The notes under the pieces are model-generated. The model ran no database searches, was not told the origin of the DNA, and saw only the letters and a list, made by a program, of their open reading frames with translations. A DNA stretch of 64,000 nucleotides from positions 128,001-192,000 of the forward strand of contig CAWJGT010000014.1 in assembly GCA_963842525.1 (NCBI GenBank), written 5' to 3'. The DNA is from an uncultured Holophagales bacterium (GTDB lineage Bacteria > Acidobacteriota > Thermoanaerobaculia > Multivoradales > UBA5704). This document shows, one piece after another, positions 14,906-39,002 of the stretch; the first letter of the stretch is position 1; the number at the start of each line of letters is the position of its first letter. The translations under genes and the position numbers were made by a program.

Positions 14906-14933
14906 GTCCAACACGCCGCACCTGAACCGTGTC
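14906..14933 (+). promoter_or_regulatory. Putative ECF-sigma promoter GTCCAACA-N13-CCGTGTC (site A, CHAT-SAVED/sigma operon)
   Basis: Motif repeated 6 times with fixed spacing; here followed by RBS AGGAGG (14943) and ATG 14957. Confidence 0.7.
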
Positions 14934-14956
14934 ATTCAGGACAGGAGGTGCACAGG

Positions 14957-16906
14957 ATGGAATATCAGGACTTCACGATCGATGTACGCTCGGCCGAGGG
15001 GGGGCGATTCGAGGCCAGGGTGATCGACGCGCCGCTCGGCGGCAACCCCCGGGTGTTTTTCCCTCCTCCCCTCTCCCAGGAGGATCTGAAGACCCTGCAC
15101 GGGCTCTTCGACGGGTCGGGCAAGGAGGCGCCGGAGAAACCCTCGCCGAAAGCCCTGGCCCGCCAGATGGGGCAGCAGCTTCACACCGCTCTTTTTCGCG
15201 ACGGCGTGGCCGAGCTCTACCAGAAATGCCGGGCCACGCTCCTGAGCGACAAGAACACCGGGCTGCGGCTCCGGCTCAAATTCCAGCTCAAGGATACGGA
15301 GGCCGGCTACCTGGCTGCCCTCCCTTGGGAATGGCTGTGCGACCCCGCCTCCTGCGAGCTCCTGGCGACAGACCCGTGCACGCCCGTGGTGCGAGACATC
15401 GCCGTTCCCCGGCCCCAGGGGACTCTCGAAGTGGCAGGACCCCTGCGCGTCCTCGTCGTCGCCTCAGCCTCCAGCGACATGGGCCTCGACCTGGAGCAGG
15501 AGATCGAGCGGATGGCCGCGGCGCTCAAGCCTCTCGAAGAGTCCGGCAAGGTGAAGCTGGTCCGGCTCGCGACGGCTGACCCGAACGCTCTCCGCGAAGC
15601 CCTCAAGGACGACAAGATCCACGTCCTCCACTTCATGGGCCACGGCGGTTACGATCCCGAGTCCGGCAACGGCGCAGTCATCTTCGCGCAGGAGGGCGCG
15701 GGCAAGGACCAGGTCAGCGGAGAGCCGTTCGCCACCTATCTGAAGGAGCTTCCCAGCTTGCGCCTCGTGGTGCTCAACGCCTGCAAGACCGCGCGGTATG
15801 CCAGCCGGCGAGGCCCCTCGCTCAACCACGGCCTGGCCCCGGTCGTCCTGGAACGCACCCGGGTGCCCGCCGTGGTGGCGAACCAGTACACCATCTCCGA
15901 CACGGCCGCCATTGCCTTCAGCGAGACCTTCTACCGCCGCATCGCCAAGGGGGACCCGGTCGACGAGGCCCTCACCGAGGCACGGTTGCAGCTCTACCGG
16001 ACGAGTGCCGAATGGGCGACGCCGGTCCTCTTCCTCGCCGCACCGCACGGCAGGCTCTTCGCCCTGGGAGCGGCGCGCTCCGACAACGGACTCGTGCACC
16101 GTGAGAAAACCGAGATGATCCGCCTGGGAGTGCGGAGCTTCGATGGATTCGGCGGCGACATGAAGGCACGTAACGAGGCGGTCCTCGAGCTGGCCGGCTA
16201 TTTCGACGGCCGCTATATCAAGCGGAAGGAAGACTGGCAGGAGAAGATCTTCCCGGAGCTGCGAGCATTCCTCCTGAGATGGATCGATCCGCACCGGCCC
16301 CTGCTGCTCGATTTCGCCGCTCATTCCTCGATCGCTTTTGCTGCCGGCTGGGTCCTGGAGCCCAAGAGCGGCCTCGATGTGCGGGTATCACAACGCATCT
16401 CGGGAGAAGGGGTGCTCGATTGGCATCCCAAGGACGGCACGGAGCCGGACGGCTCTCTCTGGCTCGACCGGCCTGACATCGAGCTCGACCCCGAGGCTCC
16501 GGATGTGGCCCTGGCCCTCTCGGCGAGCCAGCCGGACGTGGCCGGCCACGTGCAGGACTTCGTCCAGCGCAAGAGCCTCTCGATCGGGCGGATCGTGGAC
16601 GCAACGGTTGCTCCCGAGCCCGGTCCCCACTCGGTACGCGGCGGAGCGCACGCCTTGGGCCTCGCCCAAGCGCTCCTCCCCCGCCTGCGGCCCAGGAAGC
16701 CTCACGAACGCAAGGGCCGCACCCACCTCTTCTGCGCCGCTCCCAATGCTCTCGTCTTCTACCTGGGACAGCTCGCGTCCTCGCTGGGGAGAGTCGTCCT
16801 CTACGAATTTGCCTTCCGTGCGGAGGATTCGTTCGGGCGGTATCAACAATCCATCGAGCTGCCACCACCCGGCGAAGCCTCTCAGATTCCAGGCGACGAC
16901 TGGTAA
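14957..16906 (+). CDS. CHAT (caspase-like) protease fused to C-terminal SAVED domain
   Basis: CHAT: LAALPWE, VLHFMGHG (His), VVLNAC (Cys), F..TFYRRI, EWATPVLF; SAVED: AHSSIAFAAGW, HLFCAAPNALVFYLGQ..VVLYEF. Confidence 0.88.
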   Translation: MEYQDFTIDVRSAEGGRFEARVIDAPLGGNPRVFFPPPLSQEDLKTLHGLFDGSGKEAPEKPSPKALARQMGQQLHTALFRDGVAELYQKCRATLLSDKNTGLRLRLKFQLKDTEAGYLAALPWEWLCDPASCELLATDPCTPVVRDIAVPRPQGTLEVAGPLRVLVVASASSDMGLDLEQEIERMAAALKPLEESGKVKLVRLATADPNALREALKDDKIHVLHFMGHGGYDPESGNGAVIFAQEGAGKDQVSGEPFATYLKELPSLRLVVLNACKTARYASRRGPSLNHGLAPVVLERTRVPAVVANQYTISDTAAIAFSETFYRRIAKGDPVDEALTEARLQLYRTSAEWATPVLFLAAPHGRLFALGAARSDNGLVHREKTEMIRLGVRSFDGFGGDMKARNEAVLELAGYFDGRYIKRKEDWQEKIFPELRAFLLRWIDPHRPLLLDFAAHSSIAFAAGWVLEPKSGLDVRVSQRISGEGVLDWHPKDGTEPDGSLWLDRPDIELDPEAPDVALALSASQPDVAGHVQDFVQRKSLSIGRIVDATVAPEPGPHSVRGGAHALGLAQALLPRLRPRKPHERKGRTHLFCAAPNALVFYLGQLASSLGRVVLYEFAFRAEDSFGRYQQSIELPPPGEASQIPGDDW

Positions 16907-17031
16907 TGCGCCGAGGCCCGATCAACGTTCCCCCTCTCCCGGCGGGGGATGGGCGGAAGATGGGAGAGGGGGCCAGGGGGTGAGGTCTCTCTCTGGCGGA
17001 AGGGAGGCTTCTGTGGAAAGCTACCTCCGGC

Positions 17032-17643
17032 ATGCCGCCGAACACAGCCTGTACCGAGGACGAGAAGATCCGAGCAGCCATCCGGGCCCTCCAGGCCGGG
17101 GCCGGCCCCGACGCCTTCGCGGCCGTCTTCCGGCGCTTCTACCGGCCGCTCTACAACTTCTTTTCCAATCGCCCCGTCCTGCGCCAGGAGGCCGACGACC
17201 TCACCCAGGTCACGTTGATCCGCGCCCTGCAGAACATCCTGCAATACCGTTGCGAAGCGAATTTCGAGGCATGGCTCCTGCGCATCGCGGAAAACGTCTG
17301 GAACAACACCGTCCGCGATCAGCTCGCGGTCAAGAGAGGTGCGCGCCTGACCACCCAGGAGCCGGAAGCCGACGACGGTCCGCAGCTCCCGGCCGGCAAA
17401 GCCCCCGGCCCCGAAGAGCTGGTCCTGGCGGAAGAGCGGACACGGGTGCTGCGGCAAGCGATCGACACCCTGCCGCCGGGGATGCGCACATGTACCGAGC
17501 TGCGCCTCTACGGAGACCTCGAATACCAGGAGATCGCCGAGGTCACGGGGATCGGCCTCAACAGTGTACGCTCTCAGCTCTTCGAGGCGCGAAAACGCCT
17601 CAGGCCCGTCCTGGAGGAGTATTTCCAGGACGCCACATTCTGA
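17032..17643 (+). CDS. ECF-type RNA polymerase sigma factor
   Basis: Region 2 EADDLTQVTL..FEAWLLRIAEN; region 4 LPPGMR..YQEIAEVTGIGLNSVRSQLFEARKRL. Confidence 0.93.
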   Translation: MPPNTACTEDEKIRAAIRALQAGAGPDAFAAVFRRFYRPLYNFFSNRPVLRQEADDLTQVTLIRALQNILQYRCEANFEAWLLRIAENVWNNTVRDQLAVKRGARLTTQEPEADDGPQLPAGKAPGPEELVLAEERTRVLRQAIDTLPPGMRTCTELRLYGDLEYQEIAEVTGIGLNSVRSQLFEARKRLRPVLEEYFQDATF

Positions 17644-17652
17644 GGGACCCGC

Positions 17653-37880: not shown

Positions 37881-37911
37881 TTGCGGGTCTCCCCTTCGTC
37901 CAGGTCGGCCT

Positions 37912-38420
37912 GCGGTGACTTGCAGTGGTGCCGCGGGACCGACAGGATTCACCACGGTGCCATAGACGCTCACTGCGGTGGCGCGCAGTGGTCCCGCGGG
38001 ACCGGCAGGAGCCACCACGGTGCCATAGACGCTCACTGCGGTGGCGCGCAGTGGTCCCGCGGGACCGGCAGGAGCCACCACGGGACCATGGACGCTCACT
38101 GCGGTGGCGCGCAGTGGTCCCGCGGGACCGGCAGGAGCCACCACGGGACCATGGACGCTCACTGCGGTGGCGCGCAGTGGTCCCGCGGGACCGGCAGGAG
38201 CCACCACAGGACCATGGACGCTCACTGCGGTGGCGCGCAGTGGTCCCGCGGGACCGGCAGGAGCCACCACAGGACCATGGACGCTCACTGCGGTGGCGCG
38301 CAATGGTCCCGCGGGACCGGCAGGAGCCACCACGGGACCATGGACGCTCACTGCGGTGGCGCGCAGTGGTCCCGCGGGACCGGCAGGAGCCACCACGGGA
38401 CCATGGACGCTCACTGCGGT
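37912..38420. repeat. Tandem repeat, 8 x 63 bp
   Basis: Unit GCGGTGGCGCGCAGTGGTCCCGCGGGACCGGCAGGAGCCACCACGGGACCATGGACGCTCACT. Confidence 0.95.
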
Positions 38421-38423
38421 GAC

Positions 38424-38557
38424 CGAGGGTCACGGCCTTGATCGACATCGAGGAGGACAGCGTCCGCATCTACCGTCTCTGCGCCGAGTGCGCCGACCGC
38501 CTGGAGATCCAAGGCCTCGGCCGGCCCACCCAGGATCCGGATGTCTACATGCTCTAG
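38424..38557 (+). pseudogene. cas2: 3' fragment of a second cas2
   Basis: Aligns to 35104-35237 at offset 3320 with several substitutions. Confidence 0.88.
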
Positions 38558-38566
38558 GCTCCACCC

Positions 38567-39002
38567 GTCCAACAATTTCCCAACGAACCGTGTCATAGAG
38601 AGTAGAGGAGGGAAGATGGCACCGCAGGACCGGCCTGCCGCCACCCTCCTCCGGCCGCGGCAATGGCCTGTCCTCGCCCGCCACCCGCGGCCGCTCTTTG
38701 ACAAAAAGAACAACGGCGGCTCAGACCCTTGCAGGCTGACGCTGGACATGAGATCATCCTGCCTCAGGCAAACAGGCGGTCACCCAGGAAAAAACCGTGC
38801 CAGTCAAAAATGATGCCAACTCAAAAATGGCATTCTGTCAATGGGGTAACGGCGGAAGAGCCAAATACTGGAAACACAAGAGTTACGACCATGAACGGAG
38901 CTGAAAAACGACGTCCCAGAGGGCCCGCGCGAGGGCCAAAAAGGGGGGTAACGGCGAAGCACAGGTTAAGTGGCCTGGAATCAAGGGCCTGGAAAGGCGA
39001 GA
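38567..39002 (+). promoter_or_regulatory. CRISPR leader 3 beginning with ECF-like motif (site F, 38567-38594)
   Basis: Near-identical to leader 2. Confidence 0.8.

Follow-up and report, generated by a model that had tools for sequence, protein, structure and literature searches.

What switches on a CRISPR-Cas locus, and which of its parts answer to the same switch? To our knowledge, little is known of how CRISPR systems are switched on. The question is raised by a type III locus in a 64,000-nucleotide (nt) stretch of the genome of an uncultured Holophagales bacterium (contig CAWJGT010000014.1; hereafter the window), where the genes of a III-D-like effector, three CRISPR arrays and the operon of a sigma factor of the extracytoplasmic function (ECF) kind are accompanied by six copies of one two-box element, GTCCAACA-N13-CCGTGTC. 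Besides the sigma factor, the operon encodes a CHAT-SAVED protein (a protease domain joined to a cyclic-oligonucleotide sensor domain), a putative membrane anti-sigma factor and a TPR-CHAT protein. We consider it likely that the 28-bp element is a promoter, with GTCCAACA as the -35 box and CCGTGTC (core GTGTC) as the -10 box, and that it belongs to the ECF sigma encoded at 17032-17643. The distribution of its copies suggests that the cas genes, the CRISPR RNA (crRNA) arrays and the sigma operon form one autoregulated, inducible regulon.

A two-box motif heads CRISPR-Cas units across the genome

An exact pattern scan of the window recovers the motif six times, always on the + strand, with starts at 14906, 21652, 22082, 31872, 35247 and 38567. 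None of 100 dinucleotide-preserving shuffles of the window yields an exact match. Arithmetic from the G+C content of 66% puts the chance rate at about 1.1e-9 per position, that is, about 1.4e-4 exact motifs in the window and about 0.02 on both strands of the whole genome. When up to three mismatches are allowed, the window gains a single match, on the - strand within the sigma gene (17439-17466, three mismatches), with 1.75 expected.

Three of the copies stand at the heads of operons. Site A (14906-14933) follows a terminator-like hairpin with a T-run (14876-14897) and is the putative promoter of the CHAT-SAVED/sigma/anti-sigma/TPR-CHAT operon: AGGAGG lies at 14943-14948 and the ATG at 14957, 23 nt from the end of the motif. 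Site B (21652-21679), the putative promoter of a small-peptide gene, begins 6 nt past the TPR-CHAT stop and ends 63 nt before the start codon of the peptide. Site C (22082-22109), the putative promoter of the cas6-cas10-RAMP-TIR-SAVED operon, ends 64 nt before the cas6 ATG. The other three copies, equally exact, lie in CRISPR leaders: at 31872-31899 in leader 1, 388 nt ahead of the first repeat; at 35247-35274 in leader 2, 10 nt past the cas2 stop; and at 38567-38594 in leader 3, which duplicates leader 2 plus its upstream 143 nt (family D7, 97% identity). Leaders 2 and 3 are copies of each other (97% identity over 300 nt), with leader 1 as a diverged copy, whereas sites A, B and C show no relation to one another in spacer or flanks. 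The motif has therefore occurred independently four times, the leaders being counted as one group.

The whole genome (9.95 Mb) contains nine exact motifs, one with one mismatch and 17 with two; the reversed pattern, used as a control, gives 36 matches at up to two mismatches and none at up to one. All nine exact sites head CRISPR-Cas units: the three operon heads and three leaders of the window, and three further leaders, on contigs C3, C12 and C22, whose repeats belong to the family found in the window. The C22 site heads an eight-repeat array, the C3 site a two-repeat relic, and the C12 site a leader with a single degenerate repeat. Another relic leader is marked by a tenth site, at C3:808547, which is degenerate; two of the three relic leaders elsewhere in the genome thus carry the exact motif and the third a degenerate one. 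The spacing is fixed as well: the core CCAACA-N15-GTGTC has 12 matches in the genome, compared with 0-4 at spacings of 11-14 and 16-19 and 0-1 in reversed controls. The three core matches beyond the nine exact sites are the relic leader at C3:808547 and two positions inside coding frames, and the sole one-mismatch site also falls inside a coding frame. With the nine exact sites and the degenerate one at CRISPR units and the other near-matches that were inspected in coding sequence, we conclude that in this genome the motif stands only at CRISPR-Cas units.

A chance origin of the motif is ruled out by the shuffles, the genome counts and the fixed spacing. A resemblance between the motif and the CRISPR repeat (both begin GTCC, and about 12 of 28 positions are identical by eye) was discarded as well, given that sites A-C and orthologous sites lie outside leaders.

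The initial annotation of this DNA had reported six exact + strand boxes with a 13-nt spacing, four independent occurrences, an AGGAGG and an ATG within 25 bp of site A, and no copy before the reverse transcriptase (RT)-cas1 genes or in the housekeeping flanks. The same coordinates, the same number of independent occurrences and the same arrangement at site A are recovered here, and neither the exact scan of the window nor the scan with up to three mismatches finds a copy before the RT/cas1 remnants or in the flanks. Nor is the motif scattered over the genome. The size of the proposed regulon changes: the six units of the window stand, and the three exact leader sites and one degenerate leader site elsewhere in the genome make it larger.

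The boxes are spaced and oriented like an ECF promoter

The upstream block of the motif contains AA(C) and the downstream block (C)GT, as in the ECF promoter pattern. AA falls at positions 5-6 and, after 16 nt, CGT at positions 23-25. For ECF promoters the rule is given as AAc at -35 and cGT at -10, with 14-17 bp between the elements and AA-n16-CGT at PddvSA of Myxococcus xanthus (PMC6061681; here and below, statements about the literature refer to the cited passages of each paper). Each copy in our locus lies upstream of a transcribed unit, close to its start, and points toward it. A consensus scan found no sigma-70-like promoter in 14600-22300 or 31600-39100, and a sigma-70 reading of the motif was rejected on this ground.

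The leader copies are related by descent, as would be expected of a passively copied leader repeat, and the motif might also act as RNA, in the form of a structured 5' element or a processing signal. The copies outside the leaders do not fit either idea: the flanks of sites A, B and C have nothing in common, and at non-leader positions the boxes are conserved across genera. Within the leaders, the boxes stay invariant even though their distance to the next conserved block varies between about 22 and 95 nt. The spacers vary without pairing partners, and four sites fold into four different structures (z-scores -1.43, -2.47, -1.15 and +1.19). Four sites with four unrelated folds make an RNA element unlikely, and we give hardly any credence to the motif being RNA-borne or a mere by-product of leader copying.

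The boxes recur at orthologous positions in related genomes

A search of 40 relatives with the sigma protein found orthologues (57-66% identity) in G001, G002 (two), G004 (two), G005, G017 and G021, which together provide eight loci (L099-L106). All eight keep the gene order (cas6-) CHAT-SAVED, sigma, anti-sigma, TPR-CHAT, and the CHAT-SAVED orthologues are 49-63% identical. The boxes follow the TPR-CHAT stop in all five of these loci that reach that stop (L100, L101, L103, L104 and L105), and the same site is present in L108 and L136. They precede cas6 in five of the six loci with an upstream cas6 (L099, L100, L101, L103 and L106), the sixth (L105) having a cas6 fragment only; L133 has the site too. 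Before CHAT-SAVED they are present in three of the eight (L099, L101 and L104), and also in L135. No site lies between cas6 and CHAT-SAVED in the other five, where the gap is only 14-94 nt; in L100, L103 and L106 the motif precedes the combined cas6-CHAT-SAVED-sigma unit. A further position is the head of cas10, in L103, L108, L109 and L135. In L103 and L135 two copies stand back to back and face divergent operons.

When the sites of each of the three positional classes are aligned, conservation is confined to the two boxes, the ribosome-binding site and the start. The boxes vary little among orthologues: the upstream one is GTCCAACA (rarely ATCC or ACCC), the downstream one CCGTGTC, CTGTGTC, TCGTGTC or CCGTGTA. 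The motif had been expected to recur before orthologous sigma operons, and this is what we find: boxes at orthologous positions, between diverged spacers and flanks.

Relatives contributed 18 further sites. Thirteen stand in front of arrays, of lone or degenerate repeats, or of leader-like blocks; one, in L108, belongs to the series TPR-CHAT stop, motif, peptide, motif, cas10; one is the cas10 site of L109; one (L113) stands ahead of a 55-amino-acid (aa) Cas1 N-terminal fragment; and two lie in coding sequence and look like chance matches. In a compilation of 43 sites the information upstream of position -1 amounts to 0.0-0.18 bits, and the signal at positions that the search did not force is found at 0 (the base preceding the motif), 9-12 and +29 to +42: the first four spacer bases favour A, A/T, T and C, and the -10 block is followed at a distance of 7-15 nt by a purine-rich stretch. 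The search pattern fixed the positions of AAC and GT, which do not vary among these sites.

Two sets of more distant candidates were examined and set aside. Among 99 distant sigma relatives (one genome per species, best 80 kept), full-length matches are at most 38% identical, 41% being reached only on short segments. A TPR-CHAT match lies within 6 kb in only four of the loci of these best 80, and none has CHAT-SAVED or cas genes; we therefore treat these relatives as general ECF paralogues. The divergent module of G009 (CHAT-SAVED 40% and sigma 30% identical) has no standard motif on its contig. By eye, a similar but shifted block pair follows its TPR-CHAT gene; we do not count it as evidence.

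The sigma factor and its putative membrane anti-sigma

The proposed reader of the motif (17032-17643, + strand, 203 aa) is an ECF (group 4) sigma factor. It has only regions 2 and 4 (Pfam Sigma70_r2 and r4_2), it passes the ECF model TIGR02937 with 83.6 bits (cut-off 42.9), and the closest solved structures found by sequence search are ECF sigmas. Region 4.2 is nearly invariant (GIGLNSVRSQLFEAR) in nine aligned sequences, those of the window and the eight orthologues, and is different in paralogues. Both in the window and in orthologous loci, a copy of the motif precedes the operon that encodes this sigma.

The neighbouring gene (17653-18486, + strand) encodes a protein of 277 aa that is the putative single-pass membrane anti-sigma of the locus sigma. 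It has no Pfam or NCBIfam hit; in our alignment (A2) the N-terminal part, where the sigma would bind, is conserved over residues 1-95, and the C-terminal domain is conserved as well; between them come first a variable linker and then a hydrophobic helix (LAAAAVLALAAGWAGGF). The predicted complex of the sigma with anti-sigma residues 1-100 scores 0.82, and the best of three controls 0.00; among solved complexes 58 of 80 reach this mark, and among mismatched pairs 2 of 110. The three runs have at least 96% of contacts in common, the per-residue confidence (pLDDT) of the partner is at least 90, and the predicted complex touches both sigma domains, with contacts in sigma residues 26-98 and 133-203.

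The last gene of the operon (18683-21646, + strand; start 18683 inferred) encodes the TPR-CHAT protein (Pfam CHAT 7.2e-71 plus TPR families). Its lipoprotein-type signal (MRTSAAALLLLLSCG) indicates that the protein is probably exported, and the protein of the window and all five orthologues inspected have a lipobox-like N-terminus. Site B follows, and then the gene of the 72-aa Pro/Asp/Glu-rich peptide (21743-21961, + strand; no Pfam hit). A small open reading frame (ORF) is found after TPR-CHAT and the motif in orthologous loci too (L100, L101, L103-L105 and L108), as well as in two paralogous modules of the same genome (C23 and C3b) and in G009 (L131). These Pro/Asp/Glu-rich ORFs are about 45-75 aa long, often have an internal repeat and have no family hit.

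A separate observation concerns the start of the sigma gene. The sequence GTGGAAAGCTAC stands about 8-10 nt before it (17013-17024 in the window) and in seven of the eight orthologous loci, out of frame with the sigma; L106 has the close variant GTGAAAATCTAT, and L100 is the exception, no such element being seen ahead of the start that was assigned there. The element might be a ribosome-binding region of an unusual kind, or else a small regulatory element.

Motif and sigma factor co-occur within the family

How closely are motif and sigma linked beyond these loci? Across 92 genomes of the family we counted as a sigma orthologue any match with E <= 1e-45 and as a motif any match with at most one mismatch, with the reversed pattern as the control and tallies made by hand. 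Sigma orthologues are found in 18 of the 92 genomes. Of these 18, 16 have a motif match, with 60 matches in total versus 18 for the control; among the 74 genomes without an orthologue 18 have a match, with 22 matches versus 28 for the control. In seven genomes (G054, G064, G066, G074, G077, G091 and G097) motif and sigma share a contig, with the motif about 2-3 kb ahead; an intervening CHAT-SAVED gene would account for this distance, and in G064 this arrangement was confirmed.

Several observations weigh against a promoter dedicated to the locus sigma. Five genomes (G020, G009, G062, G094 and G095) have real-looking sites and no sigma orthologue at E <= 1e-45. In G020 (88% complete, 20 contigs) motif variants stand ahead of two arrays and of a cas6-cmr operon; there is a CHAT-SAVED gene (37% identical) in the vicinity, with no sigma next to it, and the best sigma match is only 36-39% identical. 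Conversely, G041 and G084 have the sigma orthologue and no site at up to one mismatch, and L135 yielded no site behind its TPR-CHAT gene. By co-occurrence the motif is linked to the whole locus and not to the sigma alone, and related genomes are not independent samples in the tally. The sites behind the information profile were picked with the pattern, so that conservation inside the boxes is partly by construction. As for the predicted complex, a sigma and its anti-sigma are a textbook kind of pair; its pass therefore shows likeness to solved complexes, not binding, and may stem from the likeness to solved ECF sigma/anti-sigma pairs. Finally, three locus proteins without a family hit (277, 72 and 231 aa) could hide a DNA-binding function.

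This last point leads to a different kind of regulator. The motif might be the operator of an activator or repressor that is not a sigma factor, encoded in or near the locus, and not a core promoter; any locus-encoded regulator would give equal co-occurrence. However, the motif is neither a palindrome nor a direct repeat, its copies point to the downstream gene, and divergent operons have two opposed copies. The 23-64 nt between motif and start codons and the match to the AA-n16-CGT geometry of mapped ECF promoters likewise speak for a promoter, no sigma-70-like promoter was found for such an operator to control, and no scanned locus protein other than the sigma has a hit to a helix-turn-helix family. 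An operator thus seems to us quite improbable.

The more closely related alternative is that another ECF sigma reads the motif. The genome contains at least three further sigma/anti-sigma/TPR-CHAT modules without CRISPR genes; their sigmas are 37-40% identical to ours, and the anti-sigma was matched in two of the three. After the TPR-CHAT stop of the C23 module comes GCCAAACA-N13-CCGTGTC and then a small Pro-rich ORF, after that of the C3b module TCTGAACA-N13-CCGGGTC and again a small Pro-rich ORF, and the C3a module has a looser motif after TPR-CHAT. These paralogue-specific variants, together with the differences in region 4.2, fit a family of sigmas in which each member would read its own variant. 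The C23 motif is nearly identical to ours and its -10 box is the same, so cross-recognition, or service by another sigma, is possible, which adds to the points against a dedicated promoter. In that case the element would be an ECF-type promoter read by the paralogue of a non-CRISPR module, or by several sigmas interchangeably, and the locus would be wired into a host stress regulon. The variants of G020, with its distant best sigma match, and the sites of G009, G062, G094 and G095 agree with such an arrangement. Yet in the window and its orthologues a copy stands directly before the locus sigma's own operon, the motif is present in 16 of 18 orthologue-bearing genomes and at background levels elsewhere, and both the -35 box and region 4.2 differ between the paralogue modules. 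The exceptional genomes, moreover, are draft assemblies of up to 700 contigs, with G095 92% complete and G020 less so. Reading by a sigma other than that of the locus is, in our judgement, unlikely.

The element is asymmetric and oriented, keeps a fixed spacing, stands at the heads of units, shows no sigma-70 site and no shared RNA structure, and has a geometry like that of DdvS promoters; on these grounds we take it to be the promoter of the locus sigma. The observation made in the initial annotation is confirmed, and its interpretation as the ECF promoter of the sigma at 17032 is supported but not proven: all computational tests agree with it, and from them we infer that this sigma, and not a paralogue, binds the motif and that transcription starts a few nt after GTGTC.

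A proposed self-amplifying switch

If the locus sigma reads the motif, the system could work as follows. At rest, the sigma would be held by the adjacent membrane anti-sigma (17653-18486). Once the anti-sigma is inactivated, the freed sigma would direct RNA polymerase to every copy of the motif. It would drive its own operon (CHAT-SAVED, sigma, anti-sigma and TPR-CHAT), which would amount to positive feedback, the gene of the 72-aa peptide, the cas6-cas10-RAMP-TIR-SAVED operon and each of the CRISPR leaders: the three of the locus, that of the eight-repeat array and the three relic leaders.

For the inducing signal we favour one or both of two routes, which we infer by analogy only. By the first, a signal from outside would act through the exported TPR-CHAT protein on the outer domain of the anti-sigma, as has been proposed for DdvA. 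By the second, cyclic oligoadenylate made by Cas10 would activate the cytoplasmic CHAT-SAVED protein, which would then cut the inner part of the anti-sigma, as CalpL does to CalpT. Combined, the two routes would make a self-amplifying switch with dual input, in which TPR-CHAT senses envelope trouble, CHAT-SAVED senses cyclic oligoadenylate and both act on one membrane anti-sigma, whereupon the freed sigma boosts its own operon, the effector genes and every array, orphans included. We put this complete scheme forward tentatively, as a possible but rather doubtful one.

Leaders, arrays and gene content of the locus

All units of the locus described here are encoded on the + strand. CHAT-SAVED (14957-16906) is recognized by Pfam CHAT (1.4e-27) and SAVED (9.9e-24) and by NCBIfam SAVED (8.2e-37). 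The type III (III-D-like) effector operon (22174-31728) consists of cas6, cas10, a csx10-like gene, two csx7-like genes, a RAMP gene, the gene of the 231-aa protein without a family and a TIR-SAVED gene, which overlap or abut (Pfam Cas6, Cas10 palm2, RAMPs and TIR_2+SAVED; NCBIfam Csx10 and Csx7). The csx10-like gene is split: of its two overlapping ORFs, 24848-26221 corresponds to the N-terminal part of the Csx10 model and 25836-27089 to the C-terminal part. The split (24848-27089) is a frameshift or an assembly error.

The three arrays share a 37-nt repeat. Array 1 (32287-33534) has 17 repeats, array 2 (35683-37880) has 29, and array 3 (39003-40370) has 16 plus one degenerate repeat at 40938-40974. 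In intact arrays about 300-390 nt separate the leader motif from the first repeat. Adaptation remnants (33676-35237) without a motif of their own stand between arrays 1 and 2: an RT fragment of 271 aa (Pfam RVT_1), a frameshifted C-terminal part of Cas1, and cas2, named by eye from its Cas2-like translation. Within 33676-34968 the Cas1 profile is matched at positions 136-207 and 201-283 in two frames, and its first 135 positions have no match there; this RT-Cas1 gene looks decayed. One intact cas1 is present elsewhere in the genome (C3:1745851-1746723).

Other parts of the leaders are conserved too. A block CTYTTGACAAYTGAAG lies about 22-95 nt downstream of the motif in all leaders, at approximately 31955-31975, 35355-35375 and 38675-38695 in the window, on contigs C3, C12 and C22, and in L113, L114, L116-L119, L121 and L122. 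It holds a perfect sigma-70 -35 hexamer; no conserved -10 was seen with it, and the consensus scan gave no sigma-70-like site. The block may serve as a second, basal promoter or as a binding site for a protein. The 3' part of the leader, about 250 nt (32050-32286 in leader 1, with the matching parts of leaders 2 and 3 and of those on C3, C12 and C22), is conserved across seven leaders and holds two GGGGTAACGGCG blocks and an inverted block ATGCCAG...TGGCAT. If the motif is a promoter, this part would correspond to a long 5' leader RNA of conserved sequence. Array 2 is followed at 37910-38421 by a tandem repeat of 63 nt (8.1 copies, 96% matches), and the relic leader on contig C3 by a different one of 62 nt (9.3 copies; L001 2006-2582).

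Upstream of the locus lie the genes of a GGDEF-EAL protein (11156-13351) and a DEAD-box helicase (13531-14757), neither with a motif; the helicase gene ends in the terminator-like hairpin just ahead of site A. GC-rich palindromes of the repetitive extragenic palindromic (REP) kind (GGGAGAGGGGG... type) occupy the gaps 16920-16990 and 18490-18690, and such elements apparently also run in frame within the TPR-CHAT gene (about 20240-20500 and 20880-20960). TPR-CHAT residues of about 500-585, which lie at the in-frame elements, are missing from the L099 orthologue. REP-like elements similar to those of the window are present in G009.

Comparison with known systems

The closest known system to this locus is the DdvS/DdvA island of Myxococcus xanthus, in which an ECF sigma and a transmembrane anti-sigma control an island with a cyclic-oligonucleotide-based antiphage signalling system (CBASS) and CRISPR-Cas of type III-B (PMC6061681, PMC11506125). 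Promoters of DdvS were found with the query GTAAn16CGT and verified by reporters, rapid amplification of 5' ends (5'-RACE) and chromatin immunoprecipitation, and their AA and GT were crucial (PMC6061681). The two systems have in common, as far as the cited passages describe the island, an ECF sigma, a single-pass membrane anti-sigma, a periplasmic TPR-CHAT, a CHAT-SAVED protein and a type III system. Both have AA-n16-CGT promoters before the sigma operon and the type III cas operon, those of our locus being predicted and the likeness one of geometry only. In Myxococcus the sigma promoter stands before the type III cas operon, and crRNA production therefore depends on DdvS. The periplasmic TPR-CHAT of DdvA is proposed to start regulated proteolysis (PMC11506125).

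Set against the same passages, the differences are as clear. TPR-CHAT here is a separate lipoprotein gene and is not fused to the anti-sigma (277 aa), and the anti-sigma, in contrast to DdvA, is without CHCC zinc ligands (IAVHPDAARAL; alignment A2, by eye). The effector genes are III-D-like, not III-B; CHAT-SAVED belongs to the sigma operon, and no CD-NTase was seen in the annotated stretch. The Myxococcus leader is described as having no sigma promoter and being reached by read-through, whereas every leader here, dispersed and relic ones included, has its own copy of the motif. The matches listed in sequence searches of solved structures are generic ECF sigmas and TPR proteins, and none of these chains bears the name DdvS or DdvA.

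A second precedent is CASP-sigma (RpoE) of the type III-E Craspase, with the inhibitor Csx30, the cytoplasmic TPR-CHAT Csx29 and the effector Cas7-11 (Strecker et al. 2022, PMC10028731). The inhibitor that holds CASP-sigma is cleaved by the CRISPR-linked CHAT protease; three matches to the CASP-sigma motif lie within the locus, ahead of cas1 and two unknown genes, and reporters were sigma-dependent (PMC10028731). Like our locus, this is an ECF-like sigma in a type III locus with motif matches in the locus itself, a likeness by description and not base by base. Compared with what is described there, our system is a multi-subunit Cas10 system, with separate Cas10, Csx10 and Csx7 genes and no single-protein Cas7-11; its TPR-CHAT looks exported (lipoprotein-type signal), not cytoplasmic; and its sites stand before the effector operon, the arrays and the sigma operon, while the cas1 remnant has none.

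The CHAT-SAVED protein invites comparison with CalpL-CalpT-CalpS, in which a SAVED-Lon protease, the soluble anti-sigma CalpT and a sigma of ECF-like type act together (10.1101/2024.05.08.593097, PMC11229360). In both cases, going by the cited passages, a fusion of cyclic-oligoadenylate sensor and protease is encoded beside an anti-sigma/ECF-sigma pair in a type III locus, with transcription as the proposed output. The protease domain here is CHAT, not Lon, and the anti-sigma is of the membrane type, unlike the soluble CalpT. For the type III-B SAVED-CHAT/PCaspase/PCc-sigma system of Haliangium ochraceum a transcriptional arm has been proposed and marked as hypothetical; the sigma itself is cleaved by PCaspase, and the cited passages describe no anti-sigma (10.1101/2023.06.23.546230). 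That system likewise has CHAT and SAVED in one protein and a sigma encoded next to the type III genes. In contrast to its description, no C14 PCaspase, PCi or kinase was seen here in family scans of the locus proteins, which cover part of the ORFs of the window. The second CHAT protein of our locus is TPR-CHAT with its lipoprotein signal, which makes cleavage by a cytoplasmic protease unlikely.

In the passages cited, the targets of the protease-linked type III sigmas CalpS and PCc-sigma appear only as hypothetical or, for CalpS, as 'specific genes'. From the DNA examined here a candidate regulon can be listed, with nine exact sites and one degenerate site in a 10-Mb genome, all at CRISPR-Cas units, which makes it a concrete and cheaply testable prediction. 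A sigma promoter embedded in every CRISPR leader is a design that the cited descriptions of DdvS and CASP-sigma do not include, and it would tie dispersed and orphan arrays to one switch. If the CHAT-SAVED input is real, recognition of a target by the type III system would increase the amounts of crRNA and Cas through positive feedback, a direct link from interference to expression of which the literature compared here, in the passages cited, shows no example among CRISPR systems. DdvS/DdvA and CASP-sigma are clear precedents for the system as a whole; what is new in the locus are the leader-embedded promoters, as predicted here, and the possible feedback from interference to expression.

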